This document shows positions 40,670 to 60,307 of a DNA stretch of 64,000 nt, one piece after another. How positions within the stretch are numbered: position 1 is the first letter of the stretch; the number at the start of each line of letters is the position of its first letter. Position numbers and translations under genes: made by a program. The notes beneath the pieces are model-generated. The model was not told where the DNA came from and ran no database searches. It saw only the letters and a list, made by a program, of their open reading frames with translations. The stretch comes from a virus. The DNA is taken from positions 3,985-67,984 of IMG/VR virus record IMGVR_UViG_3300031772_000023; one strand, given 5' to 3'.

Positions 40670-40685
40670 AATACATATACATGTT
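40670..40685 (+). repeat. attI-like site, partial copy
   Basis: AATACATATACATGTT identical to 44706-44721 and 59658-59673. Confidence 0.75.
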
Positions 40686-41167
40686 AGCAGAAATGGCTAC
40701 GACCCTACTAACAAGGATAACCATCGTGTAAGTTATCTTTCTTGTCTGTATAAAAAGAACCCGAAACACTGTGCATTGAACTATCACAAGTAATTTCTTC
40801 CCAAATTGTAACACCTAAATCTTCAATCTTTCTTTCTGTACGTTTTAAAAATTCATTAGCTAACTCTTCACTTTCAAATCCTTCGTTGTTTGGGCATCTG
40901 TAAATACGACCTAACACTTCGCCTGATTGGTGCAAAGCAAGATAACCCCAAGCACCTCCGTCTTGTAAATCACTTCCGCAAATTGGACATTCCATTGTAT
41001 AAAATTTAAAATTAATACCCTTGTAAATTAACCGCCACTTCTGCTAACAAGGGTTTGTAGCAATAGGGGCAGAAGGAACTAAATTGAGCCTTAGTACTTC
41101 TATTAGGCTGCGGTGCTATATTGAACAGTAGTGCTATAAATCCCCACTGCTACAAGCCCCAAACGTT
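40683..41167. mobile_element. Solo satellite gene cassette
   Basis: GTTAGCAGAAAT...ACTTCTGCTAAC inverted ends, then hairpin 41046-41167 (gggtttgtagca / tgctacaagccc). Confidence 0.85.
40708..40995 (-). CDS. Cassette gene, Cys-containing hypothetical protein
   Basis: CPICG start; fills the cassette. Confidence 0.7.
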   Translation of the reverse strand: MECPICGSDLQDGGAWGYLALHQSGEVLGRIYRCPNNEGFESEELANEFLKRTERKIEDLGVTIWEEITCDSSMHSVSGSFYTDKKDNLHDGYPC

Positions 41168-41189
41168 AGGTGCAATTTAATATTTTAAA

Positions 41190-41591
41190 TTAATAAAATT
41201 TTTCTACTTCTTTTCTTATCAAATCCGGGGAACTACTCATATCATTAGAAATAATATCAATAGTTATATTATACCATTTTTCAAAAGTTTCTGCACTCAT
41301 TTTATCGAAAGATAATGATTGTGGAAAATAATAGTGAAGCCCATCTTTACCTTCGAATTCATCATAATAACCACATCTTATTGTAAGTATTTTTCTATAG
41401 ATTTCTAGCGTAGCATATTTATCTTGATTTTCAAATCCAATATTAAGTAGTGCGAATCCTTTTCTATGAAACTGTACATTTCTGGCTATGGTTGCTTTTA
41501 CTTCAGCACCTACTTTTATCTTATTAGATTGATCTATACTTTCTGAATCAACAGGAGCATAATGACCAGATTTTAGTTTAGTAAGAAACAT
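41190..41591 (-). CDS. DUF1367/NinB-like protein
   Basis: RNVQFHRKGFALL...SLSFDKM...FE. Confidence 0.6.
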   Translation of the reverse strand: MFLTKLKSGHYAPVDSESIDQSNKIKVGAEVKATIARNVQFHRKGFALLNIGFENQDKYATLEIYRKILTIRCGYYDEFEGKDGLHYYFPQSLSFDKMSAETFEKWYNITIDIISNDMSSSPDLIRKEVEKFY

Positions 41592-41963
41592 TTATAATTT
41601 ATAAAAACTAGGTTCGAAATGTCCATTTCCTTTTTCATCTTCTACCCAATGATGTGATTCCCATTTTTTTCTCTTATTGTGTTCTTCTTGGTAAAGCAAC
41701 TGTCTTTTTTTATGAATGGAAATATATTCTTTATTTGACTTATCAGATTTTACTTTTTCATTTAATTCCTCCTCCTCCTTATTCTTTACCCATAACTCTA
41801 CATCAACAATCGTTTTTCCTATTGCCCATGAATACATTTCATAATCGGTTACATATTCTATTTTACCGTTAAATACTTGAAAGCAACACCAACTTTCAAA
41901 CGCTTCGATGCGATACTCTTCAGAATAGCATTGCACTAAAGATGGTATTTTGGTTATTGTCAT
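41592..41963 (-). CDS. Hypothetical protein
   Basis: Abuts downstream gene. Confidence 0.55.
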   Translation of the reverse strand: MTITKIPSLVQCYSEEYRIEAFESWCCFQVFNGKIEYVTDYEMYSWAIGKTIVDVELWVKNKEEEELNEKVKSDKSNKEYISIHKKRQLLYQEEHNKRKKWESHHWVEDEKGNGHFEPSFYKL

Positions 41964-42147
41964 TTTAATTTAAAATAAACCGGAAGGTTTTTTACTCCCT
42001 CCGGTTCTCAGTTAGCGACACCATCCAAGCTATCCACTACTTTTTTTTCATATACCGTGTAAATAGCGTGTCAGTATAAGTATGCCCTTTGGTTTATAGG
42101 TGTCTAGTGGTTTTCTTTAATTATATAACTAATTAATTATCAATAAG

Positions 42148-42762
42148 TTAAAATGGTAAATCTGAATGACTATCTTGATTAACTTCTGCTTCTTGTGGAT
42201 TAAAAAATGCTTTATATTCCTTAGATTCAATTATTTTTTTTCTTAACCATTCCGGCAATGCGCTGAATTTTTTATCATCAAAAGTTTCTAAGGAAAATTC
42301 AAAATTAGGATTTATCTGTGGTGGACATATTACACCTTTGGGAAGACCGGATATTGATGCAATCGTAGCGTATTCTTTTCCACTTGATTTTGATTTTGAA
42401 TATACAATATTAAGCATACAAGGGACACTCAATAGATTTGTTACATCAAATGCTTTTATTTCATCGGCAGTAAATGCCTTGCCGCGCCAACTATATAAAT
42501 CTTTCGATAGATTTGATTTTTCATACATTGATAATGTATATTCCTTTGAGACAGAATAAGGCTCTTCTCCTTTTTCTGGATTAAAAACTTTTTTTTCAGT
42601 TGGAAGCTCCCATGTTATTCTTACCTTGTTTAGGCCCTTAGTCTCTCCCTTAATTATTTCTTTAACAGTTCCGATATGAACCATTGAATAACATCTTGCA
42701 ATGTGATTTCCTGCTGGTGGTAAGTCAGCTATTTTACCTTCGTTTGTTGCTGTGATTGACAT
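42148..42762 (-). CDS. Putative single-stranded DNA-binding or replication protein
   Basis: Acidic tail ending DLPF; PAGNHIARCY N-terminus. Confidence 0.6.
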   Translation of the reverse strand: MSITATNEGKIADLPPAGNHIARCYSMVHIGTVKEIIKGETKGLNKVRITWELPTEKKVFNPEKGEEPYSVSKEYTLSMYEKSNLSKDLYSWRGKAFTADEIKAFDVTNLLSVPCMLNIVYSKSKSSGKEYATIASISGLPKGVICPPQINPNFEFSLETFDDKKFSALPEWLRKKIIESKEYKAFFNPQEAEVNQDSHSDLPF

Positions 42763-43288
42763 TGTTTTTTTTGTTTAATTGTTTATATATTGGTTTATTT
42801 ATTATTTTCTAATAAGCGGCCATTCTATCCCTTTTTCTTTAGCACAAATTTCACAGGCTTGGTGATAGTTGCAATCACATTTAAATCCAAACAGATTCAT
42901 AATATCATCTACTGTTCTTTCTGGGAATTCTGAATTCCTAGCTAAAATCTTTATTACTTCAACTCTTTTTTCTTGGCGTGTCATATTGTTTATATTAATT
43001 TTACAGCCCTGTTGCATCTTCTTTCGTATCCTTCGTCAATTAGGGTGTAGTTTATTGGTGATTCTTTTATAAGTTAGTTGTTTTTCTCCACGTAGGAGTT
43101 CCATAATTCTTGATTTTTCATTTTGACCATATTAAAATTTTAGTTATATCTTCCTATGCATATTTCATCTATAGTTCTCTTTGCTTCTTTTCTCTTGGCA
43201 AATCCAATTGGTATAGCGATTGATAGGAGAAATACGATTGTGATTAGTGTGTCCATAGTTATTTTTTTGTTATAGGTTTTGATATTGA

Positions 43289-43313
43289 TACGTGAGAAAT
43301 TTTAAAAGGTTAC
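43289..43313 (-). promoter_or_regulatory. ECF-sigma-like promoter motif, copy 3
   Basis: Minus strand GTAACCTTTTAAAATTTCTCACGTA. Confidence 0.6.
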
Positions 43314-43816
43314 AATATTTTTTTAATTATTATTTCAACTCTCTGATTTTTTCTTCTACACTTAAACTGCTCAGGTGGAATTGATTTAATAAATTCTGGA
43401 CTATCTCCGGAAATTATACCCAAAGTAGAGAAACAGTCATAAAGTACTTTTCTTTTACTTGGCAAGTTATCTTCTGTATCAGAAAGTTGCGACACGAATG
43501 ACTTGAACGAAATCGAAACTATATCTTTAAATTTAGGAGGATTTAAAGCCGTTAATCTCCACATCATTGCTTTTTTTCTCTTTAATCTATTAGTCCAATG
43601 CTCAGACATTAATCCATTTCTTCCATTAAGCCCCGGTATAAGCCCAGCAAGTGTTATTTTAACCCAACCTTCACCTATCTCTATTGTATCGCTTACGGTG
43701 GTCTCGCTGAGTGAACTACGGCCTAGTTTTACGGCCCTAGGAACAGATATAGGCTTTATAATAGCTTTTCGTCCGTATTTGGCTTGATATTCGGAAGCGG
43801 ACATTTGTTCGGTCAT
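43310..43816 (-). CDS. RusA-like Holliday junction resolvase
   Basis: PGLN...DTEDNL...K.LYD...GII.GDS...RVEI. Confidence 0.55.
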   Translation of the reverse strand: MTEQMSASEYQAKYGRKAIIKPISVPRAVKLGRSSLSETTVSDTIEIGEGWVKITLAGLIPGLNGRNGLMSEHWTNRLKRKKAMMWRLTALNPPKFKDIVSISFKSFVSQLSDTEDNLPSKRKVLYDCFSTLGIISGDSPEFIKSIPPEQFKCRRKNQRVEIIIKKIL

Positions 43817-43826
43817 TATGTTGATT

Positions 43827-44666
43827 TTAAAAGTTTATATTGTTTATTGGAGACTGTATTTTTGAAATTAAGTTGTGTGAGATATGAGTATAGATTTCAG
43901 TCGTTCTTACGTCTGAATGACCAGCTAGTCTTTTTATAAGTAAAATATCTGTACCCATTTCTACCATGTGTGTGAAAGTGCAATGACGGATAAGGTGTGT
44001 ATAAACTCTTTTAGAAAGTCCTGCCGATTTAGCGAGTTGTTTTATTACCTCGCCAACTGATCTTGCCGAATATTGCAAATCATTTTGTCCATTAAAAACA
44101 TAAATAACGGATTTGTATTCTCTGTAATATTTTTCGAGCAATGGGATAACGTTAGGATTCAATCCTACCTGCCTGTCCTTTTTACCCTTTGCTTGAATAA
44201 TATTTATTATCATCCTACTTCTATCAATATGTGACCATTTTAAATTTATTATCTCAGATACACGAAGGCCGCATGAATATAGTAAAGCAAAAATAGTTTT
44301 GTGTTTCAGATTCTCACATACATTAAACATTCTCTGTATTTCCTCTTGAGATAAAACTATTGGCAGCTTTTTAGATTTCCTCGGACGCTCTATATATTTG
44401 AATTTCTCAATTCCAACATGAGCGACCTTTTCATAATAAATCTTTATTGCCGAATGATAACCGGAATGGGTTGATGGTTCTTGAAATTGACCAAGGAATT
44501 GAATTATCATTTCGTGATTAATTCTATCGGGATGAGTAACTTCTTTCCTTTCAAAGTGCGCAAGGAATCCAGTAAAGTTACTACAATAATTACTTACTGA
44601 TCTAGGAGAGTATTTTCTAAACTCCATATACTTTCTGAGTTGATTGGTATGCTCTGAAATATTCAT
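43827..44666 (-). CDS. Tyrosine recombinase, integron-integrase-like but without the IntI-specific insertion
   Basis: SAM-like N-terminus (YSPRSVSNY), KKLPIVLSQEE, catalytic GLRVSE / AKGKKDR / HLIRH / AGH / IYTH. Confidence 0.92.
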   Translation of the reverse strand: MNISEHTNQLRKYMEFRKYSPRSVSNYCSNFTGFLAHFERKEVTHPDRINHEMIIQFLGQFQEPSTHSGYHSAIKIYYEKVAHVGIEKFKYIERPRKSKKLPIVLSQEEIQRMFNVCENLKHKTIFALLYSCGLRVSEIINLKWSHIDRSRMIINIIQAKGKKDRQVGLNPNVIPLLEKYYREYKSVIYVFNGQNDLQYSARSVGEVIKQLAKSAGLSKRVYTHLIRHCTFTHMVEMGTDILLIKRLAGHSDVRTTEIYTHISHNLISKIQSPINNINF

Positions 44667-44697
44667 TTGATTACTGTTTAATTATTAGATAGTTACA

Positions 44698-44721
44698 TAA
44701 TATGTAATACATATACATGTT
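44698..44721 (+). repeat. attI-like primary site
   Basis: TAATATGTAATACATATACATGTT, 31 bp upstream of the recombinase start; ends in the first GTT of the array; no hairpin. Confidence 0.8.
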
Positions 44722-44733
44722 CTACGCAATTGT

Positions 44734-45012
44734 TCAAGGGGCAACAGCCACAGCCGTTTTACTATTCTGTATTTCTTCATGCTTTTCAAGTTCCTCTTTG
44801 AAATTGTGCATTGCAGAAATCATACAAGTTAATCCCCCTTCGTAGTTTGCAATCCATTCTTCCCAACCATACGAGCGTTTAATATCGTGCATCTTACCTC
44901 TCGTTCTATCTATCTCACATCTGAGTTCTTCAATTAATTCACTCATCGGTTTATCCATTTCATCTGCACTTTTGTAGTAAATTGGATTTTGGTCTTTGTT
45001 TTTTCTTTCCAT
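44734..45012 (-). CDS. Cassette 1 hypothetical protein
   Basis: Inside GTTCTACGCAATTGTTCAAGGGGC / GCCCCTTGAACAACTGACGTAGAAC inverted ends. Confidence 0.7.
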   Translation of the reverse strand: MERKNKDQNPIYYKSADEMDKPMSELIEELRCEIDRTRGKMHDIKRSYGWEEWIANYEGGLTCMISAMHNFKEELEKHEEIQNSKTAVAVAP

Positions 45013-45070
45013 TGTGTTTTATTTTTTAGTTATTAATTTCTTACAGCCGCCCCTTGAACAACTGACGTAG

Positions 45071-45151
45071 AACAAGCGGGTTTAATTCCATTGTCAAAAT
45101 CATTTCATCGTTGCGGGATATTTTGCCAACGAAATAAACCCGCAGGACGTT
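45071..45151 (+). repeat. attC-like hairpin 1
   Basis: AAC-aa-gcgggttta...taaacccgc-aggac-GTT. Confidence 0.8.
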
Positions 45152-45180
45152 ATATTCAATTCGTTTTTTCAATTTAAAAA

Positions 45181-45558
45181 TTAAGAGGTTGCTTCGTTGT
45201 GGCAACTGCAATCACATATACTTTTTGGAAACTCTCCGCAATCGCAATTTTCGCAAGTTCTCCATTTGGGTAATTTTTTTGTGCCTTTAATAAACTTCTG
45301 CCATTCATAATTATTTTTTGGTTCATAGTTCCATGCTTTTCTCAATTCATCTTCGGTGAAAAGTGTTTTGTTTTCGGTAATGATGCGATTGAGCATATCA
45401 ATTTTGTCCTCATAGTATTTTGCCCTGCCATTATCATCTTCAAATTGTAGTGCAAATTCATTCATCGCATCTAAAACTTCTTTCGTGAAGTATTCTGTAT
45501 TGCCACTTACATTTTTGAACGGACAATGTTTCTCTAAAATTTCTTTTGCTGTTTTCAT
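45181..45558 (-). CDS. Cassette 2 hypothetical protein
   Basis: MKTAKEIL..., Cys-rich C-terminus. Confidence 0.7.
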   Translation of the reverse strand: MKTAKEILEKHCPFKNVSGNTEYFTKEVLDAMNEFALQFEDDNGRAKYYEDKIDMLNRIITENKTLFTEDELRKAWNYEPKNNYEWQKFIKGTKKLPKWRTCENCDCGEFPKSICDCSCHNEATS

Positions 45559-45616
45559 TTTGATTGTAGTTTATATTGTGAAAGTATTTTTAAATTGAAA
45601 AAACGAACTGGAATAT

Positions 45617-45678
45617 AACAAGGGATTAAAAGAAATTGGCTGAAAAAAGAAGCCAACTTCTTTAATCCCCGATGCGTT
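45617..45678 (+). repeat. attC-like hairpin 2
   Basis: AAC-aa-gggattaaa...ttggct / agccaa...tttaatccc-cgatgc-GTT. Confidence 0.85.
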
Positions 45679-45728
45679 GTGCGCAATTTTTTGTGTATTA
45701 AAATGGGCAACAGCCACAGCCTGCATAC

Positions 45729-46346
45729 TTAAAATAGTTTTACCTGCATTGTTCGTTCTTTAAAATTTTTCATTGCATCATCATAATATCCTTTGTCAAT
45801 TTCACACGCCACCAAATCAAATTCTTTATAGTGGCAAGCAATGGCAATGTTTCCGCTTCCCAAATGTGTATCGAGTATTTTGTTTCCCTGCTCTGCATAT
45901 TCCTTTAGCAAAAATTCATATACTCTTATTGGCTTTTGGCATGGATGAACTTTGCCTCTGTAATCTCCTTTTGCCAATGGGTCACGCTTGTAAATTTTTG
46001 CGCATCTATCAAATGAAGTCCATGCCATTTCACATTCGGCATAAGTTCTATTTTTGAAACCTTCGCCTTTATCCCAAATCACAAAGCATCTTGTCGGTGG
46101 CAATCCAAAATAATTTCCACCCCATATAATTTGATTTTTGCTAACTCTAAATAGTTCATCAAAATATGCTTTGTCTGGGATTGCCTTATCCCAATCCTTC
46201 TTTTCAAAATTATTGAAGCCTTTATATCCAACATTGCCACCATCCATTCCAATTCCATAAGGCGGGTCAACTATTGCCAAATCAAAATGCTGGTCAGGAT
46301 ATTCTGCCATTAACTTCATGCAGTCTATGTTTCTAATATCAATCAT
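45729..46346 (-). CDS. Cassette 3 DNA methyltransferase (N6/N4, beta order)
   Basis: DPPYG before ILDTHLGSG; HPCQKP; likely start MIDIRNIDCM. Confidence 0.9.
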   Translation of the reverse strand: MIDIRNIDCMKLMAEYPDQHFDLAIVDPPYGIGMDGGNVGYKGFNNFEKKDWDKAIPDKAYFDELFRVSKNQIIWGGNYFGLPPTRCFVIWDKGEGFKNRTYAECEMAWTSFDRCAKIYKRDPLAKGDYRGKVHPCQKPIRVYEFLLKEYAEQGNKILDTHLGSGNIAIACHYKEFDLVACEIDKGYYDDAMKNFKERTMQVKLF

Positions 46347-46397
46347 AACAGCCGCCCATTTTAATACACAAAAAACTGTAAAGGCTAAAGCCCGCAC

Positions 46398-46504
46398 AAC
46401 ATAGGGTTTGCACTAATTTTCCTTCAACTTTTTTATTCTGTTTCATTTGTTTCAGTCAAACCGTTTGAGGCAAACGCCCTTCGGGTAGTCAAACCCTTGA
46501 ACTT
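46398..46504 (+). repeat. attC-like hairpin 3 (core CTT)
   Basis: AAC-at-agggtttg...caaaccct-tgaa-CTT. Confidence 0.7.
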
Positions 46505-46778
46505 AAATGCAATAGCTACGACCCCGCTCCGTAAGTTCAACTTTGCCATTTTTGCGTTCAACCAATTTATAATCCTCAAGTTTGTATATTGTTGCCCAAC
46601 TAATGTTTTTCATAGCATTATTTGAGTAAAAACATATTGCGTTAATGCCAGATAGATAGTATATAATCTCGTTAGCTTGTAAAGTTGATATTACTTCCTT
46701 TTGAGCTTTAGATAATTTAACCGCTACTGCATTTAACACGGGTTTGGCAAAAAAGCCGTTTTGGTCTTCGTTTGACAT
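46503..46778 (-). CDS. Cassette 4 winged-helix-like protein; starts inside hairpin loop
   Basis: LSKAQKEVI...LVE...ELTERG. Confidence 0.65.
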   Translation of the reverse strand: MSNEDQNGFFAKPVLNAVAVKLSKAQKEVISTLQANEIIYYLSGINAICFYSNNAMKNISWATIYKLEDYKLVERKNGKVELTERGRSYCI

Positions 46779-46852
46779 ATTGTTCTAATTTTTAAGTTTT
46801 GTAATTCTATTTGACTTTTCGTTTCGGCTTCTTCGCCAAGCCCGCAACCGTT
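46735..46852 (+). repeat. attC-like hairpin 4
   Basis: AAC-a-cgggtttggc...gccaagcccg-caacc-GTT. Confidence 0.85.
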
Positions 46853-46980
46853 GCACCGCAAGGCGGTGCAACTAAGTCCGCGTACCGCGTGCCGCCCTGC
46901 GGGCAACATCCCGTTTGATGCCAGCGCCGGGCATTGATGTGAAGCCACATCTGCCCGCGCCCGCACAAACGCGGACAGTT
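46850..46980. mobile_element. Cassette 5, gene-less GC-rich mini-cassette
   Basis: GTTGCACCGC-AAG-GCGGTGCAAC directly followed by hairpin gtccgcgt...acgcggac-a-GTT. Confidence 0.7.
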
Positions 46981-46999
46981 GGGCGCAATTTGTATTTGT

Positions 47000-47206
47000 T
47001 CAAAGGGGGCTAACAGCCAACGACACCTCATGGTCTATATAGTTATACATTTTCATTTTAAATTTCTCTTTCCCTCCCAATAATTTTATACTGCTTTTTT
47101 TAACCCACAAAAAAGATAATGGAATTGCTTTGTCCTTTATCGGCTTTCTTCCTGCACCTTTTCGTGCGCCCCCTCGTTTTGATTTTTTCATGTTCTCTGT
47201 CCGCAT
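47000..47206 (-). CDS. Cassette 6 small basic protein (GGARKGAGRKP motif)
   Basis: Same motif type as 60576..60767. Confidence 0.6.
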   Translation of the reverse strand: MRTENMKKSKRGGARKGAGRKPIKDKAIPLSFLWVKKSSIKLLGGKEKFKMKMYNYIDHEVSLAVSPL

Positions 47207-47264
47207 TGAAGCGCACGGCTGAACCGCAGAGAAACCGTCCTACTGACTTAGCAGAACAGCAGGA

Positions 47265-47693
47265 TTACGCTTCAACTGAATTATTCTTTTTCAGTAATTC
47301 TACAAGCTCCTCCATTGAATTTTTAAGCCGACTAATTTCATCTTTCAAATCGTCAATGATTGGCTCTTTATAAACATGGTATTTATTATAATTTGACCAG
47401 CCGATTGAATAAAGAAGTGACTGAATTTTGTAGGTGCTTCCCATGATTTTGCATTTATCTACATGAGAATAGTCGAGTTTATTCGGGTCTCTTTCTTCTT
47501 CTGGAGTACCATACTGATAATCCTTACCAAATTCAATCTGTTCAATAATAATATCATCCAAATCATCATTGGTTTCAATTATAAAAGAGGAATTATAATC
47601 CTCAATAAATAATGATTCACCTGTTTCAGTGATGACTCTGAATCCACATTCGTGTGGATGTTTTTTCCATGAAATAATCTTTTTTGTTTTCAT
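47265..47693 (-). CDS. Cassette 6 hypothetical protein
   Basis: Likely start MKTKKII, downstream of near-consensus -7 box at 47733-47740. Confidence 0.65.
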   Translation of the reverse strand: MKTKKIISWKKHPHECGFRVITETGESLFIEDYNSSFIIETNDDLDDIIIEQIEFGKDYQYGTPEEERDPNKLDYSHVDKCKIMGSTYKIQSLLYSIGWSNYNKYHVYKEPIIDDLKDEISRLKNSMEELVELLKKNNSVEA

Positions 47694-47855
47694 TGTGCTA
47701 AGTTTTAATTGTTGATGTTTTGATTTGTAACGTAAAGATAAGTATTTAATTTGAATTGGCAATAGGTTTAATCAAATATATTTTCAATACAAGAATAGTG
47801 CCAAAACAGCCGCCCCCTTTGAACAAATACAAACTGCAAGGGCTAAAGCCCGCCC

Positions 47856-47965
47856 AACATAGGATTTGCAGTAATTGGTCATTTCCTTTTTTATTTTTTT
47901 CATATTGATAAATGCCCAACCAAAACGAGGCGTTTTGCCCTTCGGGTACTCAAACCCTCACCATT
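47856..47965 (+). repeat. attC-like hairpin 6 (core ATT)
   Basis: AAC-at-aggatttg...caaaccct-cacc-ATT; related to hairpin 3. Confidence 0.7.
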
Positions 47966-48317
47966 ATCCGCAAGCGTTCAAAGGGGCAACAGCCTCCCAG
48001 CCAATCCCATTCGCCATTTCTTCTTTCAACATTTTCTGTAATGCAGGTAATATTTTCTCCGCAAATCTGTTACAAGCTGTTTCGCATTTTTTGCCATACA
48101 AAATGTAAGCCATTCCTGTGTACATTTTAGTTCCGAAGTAACCAATATTTAAACCGATTAGAAAATCTCGGAAATCTTTATCTCCGTAACTTCTCCAAGC
48201 AAAGGAAAGGTTTCCCCAATCCGTAACCGATGCGAACATTCCATCTGATGTTAGAACTATTTGTCCTAACCATTCTCCATTGTCGCCTTTCAGCGAGTAA
48301 CTTTTTGATTGTACCAT
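47964..48317 (-). CDS. Cassette 7 hypothetical protein
   Basis: Stop codon overlaps the junction core. Confidence 0.7.
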   Translation of the reverse strand: MVQSKSYSLKGDNGEWLGQIVLTSDGMFASVTDWGNLSFAWRSYGDKDFRDFLIGLNIGYFGTKMYTGMAYILYGKKCETACNRFAEKILPALQKMLKEEMANGIGWEAVAPLNACG

Positions 48318-48383
48318 TTTGTTTTTATGTTTTAGTTATTGTTTCAAGTTTCTTACAGCCGCCCCTTTGAACGCCAGACGGAT

Positions 48384-48462
48384 AACATCGGATATAGTCA
48401 AGTAAAATTTCCTTCTCATAGTTGCTATTGATAAATTTTCCCTGCCCATATCCGTCAGCGTT
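48384..48462 (+). repeat. attC-like hairpin 7
   Basis: AAC-at-cggatat...atatccg-tcagc-GTT. Confidence 0.75.
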
Positions 48463-48533
48463 AGCAGACATTGTAATTATTAAAAAAACAAAAGCCACCG
48501 CACTCTTTAAATTTTTCAAATTTATAAAATGTT

Positions 48534-51237: not shown

Positions 51238-51260
51238 ATACGCAAGGCTACCATTCATTT

Positions 51261-51876: not shown

Positions 51877-51905
51877 AGTTACCTGCAAGTGCTACGATAC
51901 TGCTA

Positions 51906-52631: not shown

Positions 52632-52702
52632 ACTCTAAAACTTTTTTAATTTTCTATTCGTTTTCAAATCAAAATCCTGCTAAATTAACCGCACCAGCAG
52701 GT

Positions 52703-52766
52703 AACAGCACCCTTAACGCAAGTGGGCTGAAAAAAGAAGCCCACCAGCGTAAGGCTGCAATCCGTT
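52703..52766 (+). repeat. attC-like hairpin 16
   Basis: AAC-a-gcacccttaacgc..gtgggct / agcccac..gcgtaaggctgc-aatcc-GTT. Confidence 0.8.
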
Positions 52767-53028
52767 ATAGGAAATTTATGGATTTTAGGTATTTCTCAAC
52801 ACCTTCCTTTATTCCTAAACTTTGGTTGTGTATTCCTTCACATTCCATTGATTGACAAAAATCCATAAACATTCCTATAACATCGGGTTTATGAAATTTT
52901 TTAACCTCACTTTCTGCAAACTCCGAGAGTAGGTCTTCTAATCTAAAGTAGTTTTCAGGTGCGGTTTCATCAGCAACATTTGCACCTACATAAATCTTTT
53001 TGCTTCTTAAAAATTCTCTTGTATTCAT
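52765..53028 (-). CDS. Cassette 17 hypothetical protein; about half encoded inside the hairpin
   Basis: VKKFHKPDVIG is encoded by the arm. Confidence 0.65.
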   Translation of the reverse strand: MNTREFLRSKKIYVGANVADETAPENYFRLEDLLSEFAESEVKKFHKPDVIGMFMDFCQSMECEGIHNQSLGIKEGVEKYLKSINFL

Positions 53029-53077
53029 TTTGTTATATTTAAACGGTTAAAAAACTATCATAAACCCGAATCACGTT
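52879..53077 (+). repeat. attC-like hairpin 17 (longest, 199 bp)
   Basis: AAC-a-tcgggtttatga..ttttttaacc...ggttaaaaaa..tcataaacccga-atcac-GTT. Confidence 0.85.
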
Positions 53078-53085
53078 ATGCGTAA

Positions 53086-53376
53086 TTAAAAGAACTCGTT
53101 AATCATAGCATCTACTGTTGGCTTTAAGAACCTGAAATACTCTCTTTTGTGTTCAGCAATATCTTCTTCATTTATCCCAAACCAAAAGATAATTGGCAAA
53201 GGAATTTCAAACTCTTTTGATATTGTTTCTAATACGCTAATGTTTGGAGTTTTTGCTCCAGTTTCAATTTGTGATAAGTATGTTTGAGTTATACCTATCA
53301 ATTTTGCAAACTCCGACTGATTTAATTGCGGTGTTCGCTCTTTTCTAATGTTTCTAATTGCTATTCCTACATTCAT
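53086..53376 (-). CDS. Cassette 18 XRE-family HTH regulator with its own promoter
   Basis: NQSEFAKLIGITQTYLSQIETG; TACCTTTG -7 box at 53398-53405. Confidence 0.85.
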   Translation of the reverse strand: MNVGIAIRNIRKERTPQLNQSEFAKLIGITQTYLSQIETGAKTPNISVLETISKEFEIPLPIIFWFGINEEDIAEHKREYFRFLKPTVDAMINEFF

Positions 53377-53478
53377 AATTTTATGTTATTTATTAAGCAA
53401 AGGTAATAATTATTTCTGACAAAACAAATTTATCTTAAAAATATTAACTACGCATAATAGCAGAAATAAAAAATTTGC

Positions 53479-53861
53479 TCATAGCGTTCTGTGCTTCGGT
53501 TCAACATACGCCACGCCAATCCTATCAAACAGGTCTTTTTCCTCACGCACTTCATAGCTTTTGCCATTCTGCATAAGGTAGCCACCTTCGCTTTTTGCCA
53601 TTGGTTCACTATCTCCGCTATGCCATCCTGAAAAAGACCAGCTTGATAGGGCTTTGGAATTGCTACTATCTCAATGTCCTTTACTTCGCTTTTCTCCCTG
53701 CGTATGCTTCCTGCAATCTCACATCTTATGCAATGTGGTTGTAGCAATTCCAACACACGCACCGCTATCGAATGGGCTTCATCGTAAGCAAATTTTTTAC
53801 TATCCGCTAACACACCATTGGAAGTAATGGCGGTCTTTTCGGTATCATTTTGCTTTTTCAT
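53479..53861 (-). pseudogene. Cassette 19 family X DNA polymerase-like gene with internal deletion and frameshift
   Basis: IAGSIRR..VKDIEIV in one frame; EEKDLFDRIGVAYVEPKHR-stop in another frame; middle missing. Confidence 0.75.
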
Positions 53862-53928
53862 ATTATTTATCTTTTAGTTGTTAATCAAAATTATCTTTTC
53901 TATTCCGCCACTACTCCAATGGTCGGTT
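53809..53928 (+). repeat. attC-like hairpin 19
   Basis: AAC..accattggaagtaatggcgg...ccgccactactccaatggt..GTT. Confidence 0.85.
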
Positions 53929-54154
53929 AGCCGCCATTTAAAAGACGCTTTATCGTTCTATAATCTTCAACCTCTTTATGTAATGCTTTTAATCCTTCAA
54001 TTTGCATTTCTAAGTCTTGTTTTACCACTTCGTTTGTTTGTCTAACCAGTTCTTTTTGTAAGTCTGCTGCAATCCGTAACAATAAACGGCTGCTAACAAC
54101 ACCTAAACAAGATGGCTGGTTTTCGTTTTCTAATGAAGTTTTGTCTGTATTCAT
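53927..54154 (-). CDS. Cassette 20 coiled-coil protein; starts inside hairpin loop
   Basis: QPSCLGVVSSR is encoded by the arm. Confidence 0.65.
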   Translation of the reverse strand: MNTDKTSLENENQPSCLGVVSSRLLLRIAADLQKELVRQTNEVVKQDLEMQIEGLKALHKEVEDYRTIKRLLNGG

Positions 54155-54217
54155 AATTTTGTGATTTTAATTAAGTTTTGTGGTGGAATACGCCACCTCG
54201 TTTAGCTGCAAAATGTT
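54095..54217 (+). repeat. attC-like hairpin 20
   Basis: AAC..ctaaacaagatggc...gccacctcgtttag..GTT. Confidence 0.75.
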
Positions 54218-54227
54218 AGCACCAATA

Positions 54228-54413
54228 CTACTTTAGTGCTTCGTCCAATCTTCCGAGAACAACTAACAATGTTTTGCGTTTAATATCGCATTTCATTGCA
54301 GCTTCAAAATCCTCTGCTTTTTTATAGTCTTCAATGTGGTTGTATAGTTGCTCTATTCGATTAACCATATCCATTCTCATTCTTTCAATGTTTTCTCTTA
54401 ATGTTTCTTTCAT
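54228..54413 (-). CDS. Cassette 21 hypothetical protein
   Basis: Inside GTTAGCACCAATAC / GTACTGGTGCTAAC inverted ends. Confidence 0.65.
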   Translation of the reverse strand: MKETLRENIERMRMDMVNRIEQLYNHIEDYKKAEDFEAAMKCDIKRKTLLVVLGRLDEALK

Positions 54414-54451
54414 CGTTTTTAATTTTATCGTTAATAATCCGTACTGGTGCT

Positions 54452-54500
54452 AACAGCGTATAAAAGCCATTGAAAAAACGGCTCTTATACGCCAACCGTT
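54452..54500 (+). repeat. attC-like hairpin 21 (shortest, 49 bp; end of array)
   Basis: AAC-a-gcgtataaaagcc...ggctcttatacgc-caacc-GTT. Confidence 0.85.
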
Positions 54501-54542
54501 CCAGTAAATCTGTTTTTGATAGTTAACTTAGTTTTCATAGTA

Positions 54543-54743
54543 TTAATTTTTATAAAAATATTTAGTGATCTTACGCATATCTTTTGAAAAGGTTACGCTA
54601 AATCCATTTTTAATATCTAATTTCCAGTTTATGATTATTTTTATTGCCTCCTTTTGATGTTCGTTTATGTAATGCCATTCTCCCATATTCATTTTAATGA
54701 GTTCCTGAAGCAAACCGTTTTTATAATCTGAAGATATATTCAT
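54543..54743 (-). CDS. Hypothetical protein after dnaB
   Basis: ATGA overlap with the dnaB stop. Confidence 0.55.
   Translation of the reverse strand: MNISSDYKNGLLQELIKMNMGEWHYINEHQKEAIKIIINWKLDIKNGFSVTFSKDMRKITKYFYKN
54572..54596 (-). promoter_or_regulatory. ECF-sigma-like promoter motif, copy 4, facing the cassette array
   Basis: Minus strand GTAACCTTTTCAAAAGATATGCGTA. Confidence 0.55.
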
Positions 54744-56140
54744 TTATAATGGTTTTCTGTTATGTTCCTATCGTAAAATATTGTCATAGATTTATTGCAA
54801 CCATAAAAAACACTTCCAGTATCACCATTTCGATGTTTCTCTATTATCAATTCCCCTTCACCTACAAGTGATCTTCCATCTTCGCTAGTAATTCCGTCTT
54901 TATGAGGATAATAAATAAAAATTACAATATCGGCATCTTGCTCGATCGCGCCTGATTCTCGAAGATCAGAAAGTTTTGGCCTCATACTTCCCCCCCTCTT
55001 TTCTACATCTCGCGAAAACTGAGATAGTGCAATTATGCAAACATTAAATTCTTTTGCAATTGATTTTAAGTTTTTGGAAATATACGCTACTTCGTTTTCT
55101 CTATTATTAATAGTCTTTTCGTTAGGAACAGTCATTAATTGCAAATAATCAACGCCAACTAAAACAACTTTATGATCTCTAACTAATCTTTTAATGCGCT
55201 TTCTCAATTCAAATATTGAAAGAGATGGAGTATCATCAAGGTATATTGGCAATTTAGCTAATTCTATTTCCTTGGATTTTAAGTGTTCTAGTTGATAATG
55301 CTGCAGGTCTCCATCACGATAATTATAAGAATTTACAGCTGTTTCTCCCAATATGGCCCTATCTGTAATGTTAATATTTTCCATTTCTAAAGAAAATAAA
55401 GCGGACGGCTTACCTAACCTAGCAGCACTTTTAATAAAATGTATAACCAGCGCAGACTTACCTCTTCCGGGTCGAGCTGCTAATATTACCAATGTTTTCT
55501 TCTTCCACCCACCAGTAAATTTATCCAAATCTGTTAGTCCAGTTGGAATCCCAATCACTCTACCATGTTTAAATGCCTCTATTCGCTCAGAAAGGGCTAT
55601 TGCGGAGGCGTTCAGCGATTCAGCAAATGTTTGTATTGTTTTTGCTGTAGAGTTGTCTATTTCGCTTAAAAAGCGGCTGGAACTATTAATCAATTCAAAT
55701 ACATCGGTAGTATCGTCATAAGCCTTTTGTACAGTTTCGGTTGCAATTCTTATTATTTCTCGTTTGTAGTACTTTTCTAAAATGATTCTGCAATGCACTT
55801 GAATATTAGATGCTGAAGCTATGTTATTAGTTAGTTTTGTGACATAATGCGCTCCTCCAGCTATATCTAAAGTTCCCAATTTTAGTAATTCTTGCGTTGT
55901 AGTTAAAATGTCAATAGAATCACCCCTATTTTTTTGCTTCAAACTAAATATTGCCTTGCAGATTTCCTGATGCGCTTCTTTGTAGAAAGCATCTGGTTTT
56001 ATTATCTCCAGTGCATTTTCCAAACCTTCTTTGTCCAACATCATTGCTCCAAGAACTGCTTCTTCAATATCTAAAGCCTGTGGAGGAATTTTACCAAGTT
56101 CAATAAGTTGCTGAGGTGTTATATTTTGTTTGTATTTCAT
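54740..56140 (-). CDS. dnaB: Replicative DNA helicase
   Basis: PPQALDIEEAVLG, AARPGRGKS, FSLEM, VDYLQL, LSDLRESGAIEQDAD, KHRNG. Confidence 0.97.
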   Translation of the reverse strand: MKYKQNITPQQLIELGKIPPQALDIEEAVLGAMMLDKEGLENALEIIKPDAFYKEAHQEICKAIFSLKQKNRGDSIDILTTTQELLKLGTLDIAGGAHYVTKLTNNIASASNIQVHCRIILEKYYKREIIRIATETVQKAYDDTTDVFELINSSSRFLSEIDNSTAKTIQTFAESLNASAIALSERIEAFKHGRVIGIPTGLTDLDKFTGGWKKKTLVILAARPGRGKSALVIHFIKSAARLGKPSALFSLEMENINITDRAILGETAVNSYNYRDGDLQHYQLEHLKSKEIELAKLPIYLDDTPSLSIFELRKRIKRLVRDHKVVLVGVDYLQLMTVPNEKTINNRENEVAYISKNLKSIAKEFNVCIIALSQFSRDVEKRGGSMRPKLSDLRESGAIEQDADIVIFIYYPHKDGITSEDGRSLVGEGELIIEKHRNGDTGSVFYGCNKSMTIFYDRNITENHYK

Positions 56141-56299
56141 TTAAAAAGGGGTTTTATTTGTTTCTGAAATTGACCTATTAGCCGATTCTTCATTTTTAAG
56201 TACTTGATATAAAGCGTTACATATTTGAGAATTATATGATACTCCATATCTTTTCTTTTCTTCCATCCATTTACTGAAATCAGAATGTATTCTAATGTT
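56141..56299 (-). pseudogene. Ribbon-helix-helix-like small gene whose 5' end is interrupted by a cassette
   Basis: NIRIHSDFSKWMEEKKRYGVSYNSQICNAL; stop abuts the dnaB ATG. Confidence 0.4.
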
Positions 56300-56762
56300 A
56301 GCGGTAATACTGCGACATCGCTTCGTAGAAAGTTTTTGCCATATTTTCAAATTCTGCCAAATCAATGTTTTTGCTTACACACATATCAATTCTATCTTCA
56401 CCTAAAACCATACACTCATACATTATTCCTATTCTGTTTGCGTATGGGTCACGGTCTGCGTACTTTCTAAAATCATAAAACAATATGCCTATTTGATAAA
56501 TTTTATCTTCACCATTTTTTAAAGTTTTCCAATAACAGAAATCCTCGTTTTTATGATTTTGAACGTATCTTCTATATCCTATTTCTTTTAGTTTAGTTTC
56601 CGTTTCAGATAACCATTCATCCCAAGAAGTACTACCGCTAACATCCGCTATAAGTAATGGCGGTTGAAGTGGTAAATCAATGTTTGTGCTTTTTATTGTC
56701 ATTTGTACTGAATTTAAAGTGAGTAGTTCTAAATCCGCCACTACTCATAGCGGAGTACCGTT
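56297..56762. mobile_element. Satellite cassette upstream of dnaB
   Basis: GTTAGCGGTAATAC / GTACTACCGCTAAC ends; hairpin 56640-56762. Confidence 0.85.
56298..56702 (-). CDS. Cassette gene, hypothetical protein; starts inside hairpin loop
   Basis: Likely start MTIKSTN; PPLLIADVSGS is encoded by the arm. Confidence 0.65.
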   Translation of the reverse strand: MTIKSTNIDLPLQPPLLIADVSGSTSWDEWLSETETKLKEIGYRRYVQNHKNEDFCYWKTLKNGEDKIYQIGILFYDFRKYADRDPYANRIGIMYECMVLGEDRIDMCVSKNIDLAEFENMAKTFYEAMSQYYR

Positions 56763-56908
56763 AGCGGTCATTTTTAGACAGCCTCAAATTTGTAAATGCT
56801 ATTTTTTGTTCTGAATGTATTTTCGTCAATTATTTCTGTTACAGTGCTGGTTCTAAAACACTTGTCTTCACTTAAATATGTTATTGGTTAATTTATTAAT
56901 TTAAAATA

Positions 56909-57628
56909 TTATTTCTTTCCCCATTCAGCAGAAAGAGTAAATGGTTTTGTTTCTTCTTTTGTTAATGCTTCGTATTTAGCTTTCCAGTTTTCTTGTTCCC
57001 ACGGAAATAATTTTGTGTTTTCATCACGTTCTACAAAAGATTTAAAAGAATGTGTAATTTGTTTTGACTTTTCTTTGAATAGTTTATAATATTTAAAAGC
57101 CTCGTTGAACTCATCAAGCCGCGCGGAATCTTGAATTTCTCCAATGAAGTTATTTATGCTTCGCCATTGGTTGTAGTATTTGGAGTTTTCAAATCCAAAG
57201 TATAGTTTTATGGAATCAAAAGTTACTGGATCGAACAAACATTTAACATGTTGTTTATTTATAACACTATCACTTACACTAACACTAACACTAACAGCTT
57301 CGTTTGCTTCGTCTTGCTTCGATAATGAAGCATTTGCTTCGTCTTGCTTCATTTTGCTTCGTCTTGCTTCTCCGCTTTTTAATCCTCCTAAATGACCTGA
57401 TTTTGAACGTTCTACCTTTGTATTTTCCCAATTTATCAAATCTCTTTTTAAACTTTGCTTAATAGGCTCAAAAGCAATTTGAGTCAATTTGTCCGGCGGT
57501 TCTGGGTTTAGATCATTAATATAACGTAAGTAGTGTTTAATCAACCTTCCGGCCTCAGCATCGTCCAGAGCTTCAAATGTGTGTATTATATCAACATAAA
57601 GTATTACAGACTTTTTATTCTCCGCCAT
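56909..57628 (-). CDS. Putative replication initiator (DUF6291-type N-terminus)
   Basis: KKSVILYVD...LDDAEAGRLIK, G.LGGLKSGEARR, low-complexity linker; upstream of dnaB. Confidence 0.75.
   Translation of the reverse strand: MAENKKSVILYVDIIHTFEALDDAEAGRLIKHYLRYINDLNPEPPDKLTQIAFEPIKQSLKRDLINWENTKVERSKSGHLGGLKSGEARRSKMKQDEANASLSKQDEANEAVSVSVSVSDSVINKQHVKCLFDPVTFDSIKLYFGFENSKYYNQWRSINNFIGEIQDSARLDEFNEAFKYYKLFKEKSKQITHSFKSFVERDENTKLFPWEQENWKAKYEALTKEETKPFTLSAEWGKK
57298..57370. repeat. Iteron-like direct repeats, candidate replication origin
   Basis: Six TTGCTTC units in 10-bp register within the initiator linker. Confidence 0.6.
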
Positions 57629-57981
57629 TATATTTTTTATTTAAAAAATAATTATCAACATCTTTTCTTTCGATGTGCTTACAAACAAGGTCTATAATTT
57701 TCTGGGTTCTTCCAACAGCGTTCTTCGTGATTAATCATTGCGTGATTTCTTTTCAATTCCTTTTTTCAGAAATCACACTTATAAATAGTTATATTATATA
57801 GTACTTTCATATATAAAGTGCCTCTTCGGGTCGGGGCGGCTTGCGGTTAGCGGCTTAAGCAACTGAGAGCGCATCCCCTTCCCTAAAGGACTTTTATCTT
57901 AAATATTTTTTTGTTGAATCATTTGCTTAAGCCTTAATTAATGGACAAATATACTAATTACTTTAACACTACAACTTTATT

Positions 57982-58323
57982 TTAAATATTTACAGGTAAT
58001 TTAATTCCTAATTTTTTACACATTTCAATACCTTCGTTAATAGCATTAGGAAATTTATTTAATCTTTCTTTTGCCTTTAATATTGTGTTTTTTTTACTCG
58101 AATTATTTACCAATCTCATTCCTGTTTCTAAGTGAGAAACATTGTAGCCTATAATTTTACCCTGTATAGTTTCCTCTTCCTCCTTAAAAATAAAACATGG
58201 AATATTATTAATTGTTACTGGATGACCTTCAACTTCCTTAAATATTATCTCTCTTTTGATAGCCATTTCAGATAATAATTCTTGGGGAATAGGAGAATTA
58301 AATGTAGTAATTTTATATTTCAT
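57982..58323 (-). CDS. Hypothetical protein
   Basis: YNVSHLETGMR segment. Confidence 0.6.
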   Translation of the reverse strand: MKYKITTFNSPIPQELLSEMAIKREIIFKEVEGHPVTINNIPCFIFKEEEETIQGKIIGYNVSHLETGMRLVNNSSKKNTILKAKERLNKFPNAINEGIEMCKKLGIKLPVNI

Positions 58324-58327
58324 ATAT

Positions 58328-58918
58328 TTATTTTAAATATTTATCATAATCAATTTTTTCATTCCAACAAATAATCTGACCAGAGAAGGGATGAGGATAT
58401 TTAAACCAATCCAACATATCAGTACTAGATAGTCCATCATTTTTAGCTATTTCAGCAAAAAATTCATTATCCGGTAAATCAATACTAGTAATTATTTTTT
58501 GCTTACCAGTATTATTTTTTATAAATATATTTCCCTGAAATATGCTGAAATCCCACAGCTTTTTGATTTGTGTATCTGGGGCAAAAGTTATTTGTTTGCT
58601 ATGATAAGCACCTTTTCTTCCTGACTTAAGATTAATATTATCACCCCAAACTCTAGGAGAGAAAAAATCTCCAACTTTCCATTTGTTGCCATTTCTTATA
58701 GTAGTATACTTTGTCTGGTCATTATGTCTGTGGTCGATGAAATTTAAAGATTCTATTGGAAGTTCATCCGTAAAAATACTTGGAACTGCATCTTTTCCTT
58801 CCCAAATCTTTTCCACAAAATAAGTAGGTTCTTTTTTTCGAGAATGATATGATGGATATGTTCTTGAGAATGAAATTACTTTTGACATATTATAGATTTT
58901 CTTAATGAATAAAGCCAC
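58328..58918 (-). CDS. Hypothetical phage protein (ASCH-like)
   Basis: TKYTTIR..WKVGD...IAKNDG. Confidence 0.5.
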   Translation of the reverse strand: MALFIKKIYNMSKVISFSRTYPSYHSRKKEPTYFVEKIWEGKDAVPSIFTDELPIESLNFIDHRHNDQTKYTTIRNGNKWKVGDFFSPRVWGDNINLKSGRKGAYHSKQITFAPDTQIKKLWDFSIFQGNIFIKNNTGKQKIITSIDLPDNEFFAEIAKNDGLSSTDMLDWFKYPHPFSGQIICWNEKIDYDKYLK

Positions 58919-59172
58919 GCATCAAAGTTGGCTTCTTCTTTAATATCTCTCTTTAATCTACTTTCTACATACTGCCTTGGGCTTATATCATCAGGCTTGT
59001 GTGTGAAAAAATCAAATTCGAGATAATATACCTCTTGTCCATTAACTGTGTCAAATATAAATACTCGTTCTCCGTCTAAGAAATCACGTATTTTGTCAGA
59101 CAATTCCCAGTCTTTATCTTTTCTTGCATATTCTCGGAGTTGTATTAACTGATCTATTGGAGTGATTTTCAT
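58876..59172 (-). CDS. Stand-alone CysRS C-terminal-like domain protein
   Basis: LREYARKDKDWELSDKIRDFL...IFDT..G. Confidence 0.6.
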   Translation of the reverse strand: MKITPIDQLIQLREYARKDKDWELSDKIRDFLDGERVFIFDTVNGQEVYYLEFDFFTHKPDDISPRQYVESRLKRDIKEEANFDAWLYSLRKSIICQK

Positions 59173-59558
59173 TAATTAATTGATTTACCTAGCACAAACA
59201 TTTCTACAAAATATATATCGTTGTATTGATTCCTTTTTAAAATGTCAATTTCTTTTTGAACAGAGTCTATTATAAGTTTATAATCAATGTATGACTCCAG
59301 TCCCCTTTCCGCGAAAGATAAGAAAGCTTCTATTTTCTTCCTAGTTGAAATAATATTGGTGTGTCTCCTAAGTTTGAATTCTTGGGCTAATTTCTGCTGG
59401 GAAATGCTTATATTTTTCTCGCATAAGAACATGGAGATATGTTTGTGCTTTATAATTAGCCCGACTCTTTTATTTGACTCGAATTCCGAAGCAGTCGCGC
59501 CCATTGCTTTGGCGACCATCTTTTTAATGTCAAGTGGCGTGACTTTGTTTGTTTTCAT
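59172..59558 (-). CDS. DnaA C-terminal HTH-like protein
   Basis: HISMFLC...SQQKLAQEF..RRHTNII..RKKI. Confidence 0.6.
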   Translation of the reverse strand: MKTNKVTPLDIKKMVAKAMGATASEFESNKRVGLIIKHKHISMFLCEKNISISQQKLAQEFKLRRHTNIISTRKKIEAFLSFAERGLESYIDYKLIIDSVQKEIDILKRNQYNDIYFVEMFVLGKSIN

Positions 59559-59649
59559 AGTTAAAGATTTATATTGGTTATATTCCTGTTAAATATTTGT
59601 TACATGAACAGGAATATTAACATTAACTCGCATATTTACAACTACTTAC

Positions 59650-59673
59650 TAATATGTAATACATATACATGTT
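59650..59673 (+). repeat. attI-like site, full 24-bp copy
   Basis: Identical to 44698-44721. Confidence 0.8.
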
Positions 59674-59681
59674 AGCCACAA

Positions 59682-59903
59682 TTATAGTGGAAGATACACA
59701 CCATTTTTTACATTAAAATCGAAATCGTGTTTATCTATACTCAAATAAAATTCCTTTTTACCGCTAATCTTATTAGCTTTCTTTTTACACCACAACACAA
59801 TAATAAAATCATCAACAACACCTCTGACTTCACACGAATCTATGTTGTTAATGTTGTTTTCATTGAAATACTTTTTGAATTTTAATCCTACTTTTAATTC
59901 CAT
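59682..59903 (-). CDS. Cassette gene, hypothetical protein
   Basis: Fills the cassette. Confidence 0.65.
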   Translation of the reverse strand: MELKVGLKFKKYFNENNINNIDSCEVRGVVDDFIIVLWCKKKANKISGKKEFYLSIDKHDFDFNVKNGVYLPL

Positions 59904-60047
59904 TTTATTTTCGTTTTAAATTGTTAATAATCAAATAACTGTGGCTAACAGCGTATATAAGAAATGGCACATAAACATTCGTGCTTAATTTTAACATTCT
60001 ACAAGTGCCACTTCTCATATACGCAAAACGTTAAACGCAAATAAAAA

Positions 60048-60218
60048 TTAACCATTGGCTTTCGTTTCCAGTTCAACAATTTTGGCATCTGTTTTGTCGA
60101 GTTTATCGCTCAAACTTCTAAACATAAACTCATCGCAATATGGATTTGCCATCATATCCAAAATTGTTTTCCTTACCTCTTTAAATTCTTCTATTGTCTT
60201 CGGCATTTCTACTTTCAT
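60048..60218 (-). CDS. Cassette gene, 56 aa (not in ORF track)
   Basis: MKVEMPKTIEEFKEVRKTILDMMANPYCDEFMF... Confidence 0.55.
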   Translation of the reverse strand: MKVEMPKTIEEFKEVRKTILDMMANPYCDEFMFRSLSDKLDKTDAKIVELETKANG

Positions 60219-60307
60219 ATTGTGTAGTTTTTAATCCGTAAAAAATAACTTCGCCAAGCCCGATATACGTTATATGCCTATTGTAACGCAAGAATCATAA
60301 TAAGGTT

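Follow-up and report, generated by a model that had tools for sequence, protein, structure and literature searches.

In classical integrons, a recombinase gene lies divergent from an adjacent attI site, and each one-gene cassette ends in an imperfect hairpin (attC) with AAC...GTT ends and a single polarity. Crossover takes place at G|TT, so that each R' box is a hybrid. In the available portions of Escudero et al. (2016, 2020), integron integrases are held to have gained the recombination of single-strand hairpins via the I2 helix. Clusters of attC sites without an integrase (CALINs) that carry DNA-methyltransferase cassettes are described in phages of environmental bacteria, including a phage of Polaribacter (Flavobacteriaceae), in the accessible text of Qi et al. 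(2023, PMC9892861). In that text, the phage CALIN sites were tested with the bacterial integrase IntI1, and no phage-own recombinase or attI is reported for the clusters. A literature search turned up no paper that describes a phage-own recombinase together with attI and attC arrays; for phages, it yielded only attC clusters without a recombinase, as given in the accessible part of PMC9892861. The window analysed here is the whole stretch of 64,000 nt, bases 3985-67984 of the 67,984-bp viral record IMGVR_UViG_3300031772_000023 (CheckV completeness estimate 91%). Judged from its sequence, it carries a phage-encoded integron-like cassette system with a single small tyrosine recombinase and three copies of an attI-like docking site, named A, B and C. 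Sites A and C appear to be orphans that have lost their own recombinase gene, and their use by the resident enzyme is plausible.

The phage system resembled classical integrons in the divergence of the recombinase gene from the adjacent attI, in the array of one-gene cassettes with imperfect AAC...GTT hairpins of a single polarity, and in the crossover at G|TT with hybrid R' boxes. However, it differed from them in that the recombinase has no IntI-specific insert, the genes are antisense to the attC top strand with the hairpin upstream of the gene and the array read towards attI, and the system is phage-borne with three attI copies for one enzyme. The R/L box spacers were lopsided, mostly 1 nt against 5 nt, and the R-box complementarity reached 12-16 nt, which also sets the phage sites apart from those of classical integrons. 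Overall, the system works like an integron yet lacks two features of membership, the IntI insert and the gene orientation. With the phage CALINs, as presented in the accessible text of PMC9892861, it shares attC-type sites and methyltransferase cassettes in a phage, but here the cognate recombinase and the attI family are present.

About 24 cassettes were found in the window, bounded by attC-like hairpins of one polarity. The genes of the window run rightward until 40357, and from about 61751 down to 40708 all genes lie on the minus strand. Cultured Flavobacterium phages had short stretches in common with the window at 88-95% identity.

Docking sites, recombinase and cassette boundaries

A 24-mer was identical at 44698-44721 (site B) and 59650-59673 (site C) and its last 16 nt recurred at 40670-40685 (site A), as the preliminary description had reported. 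Exact copies of this 16-mer start at 40670, 44706 and 59658, all on the plus strand, and the full record held the same three copies and none besides. Two matches to the 24-mer were found in 0/100 shuffled sequences and three matches to the 16-mer, with up to two mismatches allowed, in 1/100. An nhmmer profile of leader and core, built from 12 sequences of other phages and none from the window, matched A (40639-40687, E 3e-7), B (44673-44721, E 2e-4) and C (59635-59675, E 1.2e-3), while the next-best match in the window (56192-56225) had an E of 1.4. The G|TT crossover point lies at 40683-40685 in the 16-nt orphan core A, at 44719-44721 in site B (44673-44721, leader and 24-mer core) and at 59671-59673 in the 24-nt orphan core C, all on the plus strand. 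Site B is directly upstream of the recombinase gene, 32-55 nt before its start codon, at the head of its array and divergent from the gene, which is the position of an attI. A search of viral contigs with the 16-mer gave 41 single matches, which were rejected as chance because none extended into similar flanks. By itself, the 16-mer is not a rare sequence in public databases, and the weight therefore rests on its context and not on the repeat.

The core was 16/16 identical across A, B and C, whereas the flanks were only about 77-83% alike. A and B have the leader in common (score reached by 0/2000 shuffles), B and C an extended core of 24-28 nt, and A and C the recombinase stub described below. 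The core of B is one base shorter than in the closest relatives of its recombinase (L045, L094 and L051) and equals the orphan type. Cassettes follow directly after each copy, one at A, two at C and 21 units at B by the present partition, the same counts as before. No left end has a hairpin, and every right end has a hairpin or a remnant of one, also as described before.

A single match to PF00589 was found in the whole record. It is the minus-strand gene at 43827-44666 to the left of site B, which encodes a Xer/IntI-like tyrosine recombinase of 279 aa (121.9 bits). The catalytic positions R, K, H-x-x-R, H and Y were visible in its alignments. Its best PDB match was the Vibrio integron integrase IntI4 (2a3v), which aligned in two stretches (query 9-179 with 8-179 and query 206-276 with 249-319). 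Between these, the phage recombinase has 26 residues against 69 in IntI4, about 43 fewer, and the gap is presumably the I2 region, the IntI-specific insert. The integron-integrase models stayed below their cutoffs (TIGR02249 162.7 bits, cutoff 265; PRK15417 98.5 bits, cutoff 435), and so did the Xer models (XerA_Arch 177 bits, cutoff 220; XerC and XerD about 152 bits). With the insert missing and the IntI models below cutoff, the enzyme is not a true IntI.

The intergenic hairpin to the right of each copy has the form nnnTAAC-A-stem...stem-NNNNC-GTTnnnn. A covariance model, R1, was made from 11 seed hairpins of the window with 15 pairs and was run without filters; attC-like is used here as defined by R1 and not by the published attC model. 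At E ≤0.074, R1 produced 21 matches; one was at 12101-12184 and the other 20 were plus-strand matches between 41042 and 60036. On the minus strand no match scored above 15.7 bits, for a site that reached 74 bits on plus, and the hairpin sites are thus strictly of one polarity. Under R1, the sites had the layout of attC, R''-L''...L'-R' with AAC/GTT ends, variable loops and one orientation. The minus strand folded better than the plus strand in 16/21 sites.

A footprint of the crossover was seen at G|TT, as in integrons. Crossover at this point predicts that a unit starts with bases complementary to the R'' flank of its own hairpin and not to that of the hairpin before it. The start of a cassette complemented its own R'' flank at 10-14/16 positions in 16/20 cassettes. 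Without the conserved GTTA, own pairings had a mean of 7.6/12 against 3.8/12 for other pairings, and the observed sum was reached in 0/10000 permutations. One row was mis-registered by one base in this test, which makes the result conservative. As a control, the R' flank of a site complemented its own R'' flank at only 4.0/12. This own-start complementarity together with the clean control bears out the earlier proposal that a hairpin belongs to the gene on its left. The sequence as read shows cassettes as units spanning the distance between successive G|TT points, and places the joint of each at G|TT, either with the preceding cassette or with an attI-like site.

Three of the four poorly matching units were resolved and the fourth was resolved in part. 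The first has a hairpin (46394-46508) with the G of R' mutated and the second has its crossover at the second of two adjacent GTTs (51878). The third, a long dnaB unit, consists of the truncated last cassette of array B (54499 to about 54801), backbone and a solitary cassette (56298-56760). For the fourth, 46851-48460, a further boundary was placed at 47963. In addition, the unit 53076-53926 was split by a boundary at about 53461. The crossover G is lost in the R' boxes at 46502 (CTT) and 47963 (ATT), which would freeze those two boundaries.

Each cassette gene lies on the minus strand with its start beside or inside the hairpin and its own site (R''-L''...L'-R') upstream of the gene. The open reading frames (ORFs) of the window arrays comprised 2570 aa on the recombinase strand against 220 aa on the opposite strand, and those of 15 related arrays 8607 aa against 1522 aa. 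The ORFs of these arrays are therefore antisense, whereas the genes of integron cassettes have no promoters of their own, lie on the attC top strand and are transcribed from a promoter beside attI. The related arrays share both ORF orientation and layout, so the architecture, including the antisense genes, is a trait of the family. Cassette ORFs tend to end in the R' box, where G|TTA reads as TAA on the minus strand, and to begin in or beside the hairpin loop (47964-47966, 56298-56300, 53861 and 56702). The recombination site thus overlaps both coding ends.

Relatives of the recombinase were found at 20 viral loci with 55-77% identity and on 8 contigs of metagenome-assembled genomes (MAGs), mostly of Bacteroidota, with 40-72% identity. 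In the related loci that could be read, the recombinase gene was preceded by the motif ACATAT-N3-4-(A)TGTT or its TATAGTAGTT variant, with a different sequence after GTT each time. This supports the earlier assignment of the sites as attI-like junctions and not as an unrelated promoter. The hairpins of the related loci were upstream of the recombinase gene and on the opposite strand in 37/37 and 10/10 cases, while R1 gave no match in 4/20 viral loci and 2/8 MAG loci. Searches with tblastn and blastn showed that, recombinase aside, the related loci had almost no cassettes in common with the window.

Origin of sites A and C

The left flank of site A (40593-40669, plus strand) holds a leader with a TTAGTTA motif and a decayed recombinase stub. 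Its minus strand reads MNNPVHVDIFEQEM, with a stop three codons on; for reference, the recombinases of seven relatives begin MNISEH..FFEQEMKRRN. The stretch 40593-40686 matched the recombinase/attI junction of one relative (L097) by blastn with 76% identity over 97 nt (E 7e-8). A recombinase-5' profile, made from the 5' ends of the seven relatives without leader or core, had its best match in the window at 40593-40634 (E 0.023), in the flank of site A. The left flank of site C (59583-59649, plus strand) has an 8-bp inverted repeat (TTCCTGTT/AACAGGAA) and a leader. It is homologous to the flank of A and was read as a more decayed stub, (V)NIPVHVTNI followed by a stop, with the start codon lost. 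The local alignment of the two flanks had 33/43 matching columns, a score reached by 4/2000 shuffles. The "hairpin" left of A and C was also considered as a terminator or operator and this was rejected, since the recombinase-gene stub explains it better, although the 8-bp inverted repeat at C is perfect.

The stub, core and leader at both sites point to descent from one or more recombinase-attI modules that lost the enzyme gene. The resident recombinase begins MNISEHTNQLRKYMEF and groups with L045, L094 and L051, so the stubs at A and C come from another subgroup. By this evidence, A and C are orphan attI-like sites, each with core, leader and decayed stub, in which the enzyme gene was apparently deleted after about codon 14. 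The preliminary description had regarded them as free-standing landing pads; instead, they are best read as relics of recombinase-plus-attI modules. What is new here is this apparent origin of extra docking sites from orphaned modules. As with cassettes inserted at secondary sites and with the second attI platforms of bacterial integrons, cassettes are present outside the main array and a site without an enzyme leads a short array of its own. The extra sites of the phage differ in that each retains the stub of a recombinase gene which was deleted and which belonged to another subgroup, and these stubs show how the extra sites arose. A CALIN, in the definition reportedly given by Cury et al. 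in 2016, has at least two attC sites and no integrase nearby. Array A has one attC and array C has one complete and one half attC, and the integrase gene is 3 kb and 15 kb away.

Similar orphans were found elsewhere. The core occurred at 27 loci in metagenome contigs, of which 25 were without flank similarity and were taken as chance matches; the core with AG gave 0 matches in genome contigs. The metagenome contigs L073 and L074 have the A-type leader and core, no recombinase gene and hairpins of the same polarity. Their stubs are of the same recombinase gene, reading KNISEHIIL-stop and MNIPEYIIFLNRKMKRK, and other first cassettes follow the orphan-type site. A, C and L074 have in common a derived CAGGA, present in 3/15 aligned sequences, and a truncation at codon 14-17. 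Nevertheless, the first cassette, joined at G|TT, is a different one in each of the three. If all three stem from one orphaning event, the loss of the enzyme gene was followed by turnover at the junctions. On L073 (816-1059), an orphan attI with a recombinase stub was observed about 95 nt after the R' of the last hairpin of another array. With this layout, a composite cassette could take an orphan site along as cargo when it is excised and moves.

Use of the orphan sites

On balance it is plausible that the resident recombinase serves all three sites. It would act in trans on all three cores, and circular cassettes would be inserted by pairing of a folded strand, probably the minus strand, with the double-stranded attI. 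Through one enzyme, cassettes would thereby enter the leftward early operon at three places, and either selection for recognition or gene conversion would keep the cores identical. The use of A and C is suggested by the core identity against flanks of about 77-83%, the single enzyme gene, the turnover of first cassettes and the shared hairpin types, as the hairpin types of A and C recur in B. Several observations count against this use. The orphan arrays are short, with one and two cassettes and one truncated hairpin, as relics in decay would be. Since the stubs derive from a different recombinase subgroup, it is an assumption that the resident enzyme recognises these sites. The stub at C was not detected by the recombinase-5' profile and is less certain for this reason. 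Five related full viral records each had a single attC cluster beside the recombinase gene, and no second attI copy was present within about 10 kb in 14 related loci, with up to two mismatches to a 14-mer allowed; multi-site layouts are thus not the rule. L073 and L074 were found by exact core match, so that their core identity carries no weight. The empty-site alleles predicted earlier were sought and not found, nor was any close relative of the phage, and the joined empty-site sequence itself was not searched. Finally, a contig from the probable source run of the record spanned attI-C without a break.

Several of these points fit with A and C being dead relics of modules brought in by recombination between phages, whose cassettes were inserted by enzymes since lost or moved with the module, and which the resident recombinase leaves unused. 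The stop codons in the stubs, the lost start codon at C, the different subgroup of the stubs, the short arrays with the truncated hairpin and the single array of related complete records would all be expected of such fossils. However, cores that are 16/16 to 24/24 identical beside flanks of about 77-83% count against disuse. Orphans with a derived substitution and a truncation point in common have three first cassettes that differ from one another, joined exactly at G|TT, and the resident core matches the orphan type and not the type of its own relatives. Disuse of A and C is therefore regarded as possible but doubtful. Much further from the data is a lysogeny integrase with the 24-mer as its attP or as a dif-like site for dimer resolution, the cassette junctions then being incidental. 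The recombinase is the sole integrase of the record, its homologues are on contigs binned into Bacteroidota MAGs, and it scores about equally against the XerA (177 bits), XerC and XerD (both about 152 bits) and IntI models, the Xer scores all being below cutoff. The core around G|TT is also taken here to resemble the XerD arm of dif. In contrast to Xer/dif, there is one recombinase gene and not a pair, and the partner sites are folded hairpins that bound cassettes; the sites on which XerC/XerD or a single XerA, XerH or XerS act have 28 bp, with two arms flanking a centre of 6-8 bp, and no such architecture was demonstrated in the core. Moreover, each of the three copies adjoins a genuine cassette at G|TT, and 47/47 attC-like matches in related loci share one polarity and lie on the side of the gene where attI is. 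This alternative is accordingly rated as very unlikely, while a dual role of the recombinase, in cassettes and in lysogeny or resolution, is possible.

A role of the 24-mer in the leftward operon, as promoter or operator and without connection to insertion, was also weighed, since at B and C a minus-strand gene lies downstream of it, encoding the recombinase and a DnaA_C-type helix-turn-helix (HTH) protein, respectively. At A, however, no gene follows on that strand, and the three minus-strand sequences had no match by eye to the Bacteroidota -7 consensus. The sequence stops at the cassette junction in each of the three copies and in every relative read, which makes a pure promoter highly improbable; an overlap of the core with the promoter of the recombinase gene itself is possible. 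A chimeric contig, assembled at repeated sites from three different genomes, was considered with the help of four sequencing runs, examined as contigs with a likeness threshold of 85 and short matching sides. In the probable source run, many attC sites coincide with contig breaks, and the depth was uneven, at 99 in the first bin and about 18 in the others. Against such an artefact, independent contigs of the source run spanned attI-B (41046-44890) and attI-C (56718-60022) with 0 differences, and a 24-nt repeat is below the usual word length of assembly. A chimera is hence scarcely credible, although no listed source-run piece spans site A, which leaves A less secure. The high depth at 40400-41066 may stem from a low-complexity T/C run there.

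The other runs offered hints only on cassette movement. Their contigs joined attC 3' ends to other cassette starts (46842>50566, 46844>54215, 56754>50566 and 54441>49190), and a contig of run X4 ended at 40687. Among the 15 of 43 joints listed, none linked 40685 to 41166. The genes beside A and C, which encode NinB and the DnaA_C-type HTH protein, had no relative in viral contigs.

Cassette cargo and implications

The single cassette of array A (40684-41165) has a minus-strand ORF at 40708-40995, its attC-like site at 41042-41171 is complete (R1 67.6 bits, a seed of the model), and its start matched its own R'' at 14/16 positions. Array B holds about 20 cassettes at 44720-54498, with the top strand of the sites on plus and the ORFs on minus. 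It was delimited by 17 R1 matches (45067-54504), the mutated-G hairpin at 46394-46508 and the two boundaries at 47963 and about 53461, which together with the truncated last unit make 21 units. This last unit (54499-54801) has an ORF at 54543-54743 on the minus strand and an R''-like flank only, matching the unit start at 13/16. The R''-like partner (54786-54801) falls within the 3' end of dnaB, in its reading frame, and array B may be fused to, or eroded into, the dnaB helicase gene. In array C, the first cassette (59672-60030) has an ORF at 59682-59903 on the minus strand, a complete attC-like site at 59943-60036 (R1 46.3 bits, a seed) and a start matching its own R'' at 14/16. The second (60031-60268, ending at about 60262) has an ORF at 60048-60218 on the minus strand and only the 3' half of an attC (60240-60268), which resembles the 3' half of the site at 46731-46856. 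Contigs of runs X2 and X4 start matching at 60029, the predicted boundary between the two cassettes, which is a weak indication.

Upstream of dnaB and outside the three arrays, a solitary cassette was identified at 56298-56766 with a complete attC-like site at 56636-56766 (R1 74.2 bits, a seed) and a start matching its own R'' at 14/16. Its left junction is neither an attC end nor an attI detectable by the profile, and a fourth attI at 56297 was rejected because the attI profile gave no support. It looks like a secondary-site insertion, and is the better analogue of the secondary-site insertions of bacterial integrons. A further attC-like hairpin at 12101-12184 (22 bits, E 0.026) separates two minus-strand ORFs of a small island (11373-12559) on that strand, which is surrounded by the block of plus-strand genes, and no start/R'' partner was found for it.

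Three cassettes of array B (45729-46397, 48534-49079 and 51906-52631) encode DNA methyltransferases above the Pfam cutoffs (N6_N4_Mtase, EcoRI_methylase and D12 class). A fourth candidate at 51261-51752 had weak matches to N6_Mtase and MTS below the cutoffs. This cargo is probably anti-restriction. Array B also includes an HTH_3 regulator, and its cassette (53074-53461) was 94.6% identical over 388 nt to cultured Flavobacterium Lillamyvirus phages (L103, 1501-1888; L104, 4418-4805). The homology begins at G|TT and stops at R'', and the neighbouring sequences are otherwise unrelated. In the window, the hairpin of this cassette is lost beyond R''. The Lillamyvirus phages had 5-6 R1 matches each, all of the same polarity, no recombinase homologue at E ≤1e-20 and no attI-profile match in the parts fetched. 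In this they look like phage CALINs.

Tentatively, the orphan attI modules, made of core, leader and a stub turned inverted repeat, may be a propagating class of sites in Bacteroidota phages, with one Xer-like recombinase without the insert running a distributed integron whose arrays stand in different transcription contexts; this is conceivable, though short of probable. If it is true, single-strand hairpins could be recombined without the IntI insert, which is regarded as the defining feature of integron integrases. A natural phage family with the same G|TT footprint and an enzyme without the insert bears directly on the origin of integrons. The orphans come from another subgroup and the resident core is of the orphan type, so that, on the same condition, the specificity of site and enzyme would have been reshuffled between phages. 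A docking site can persist after its enzyme gene is gone, and one recombinase may supply several arrays, with three natural targets in one genome. Overall, with methyltransferases as cargo, the system would give phages their own means of swapping counter-defence genes.

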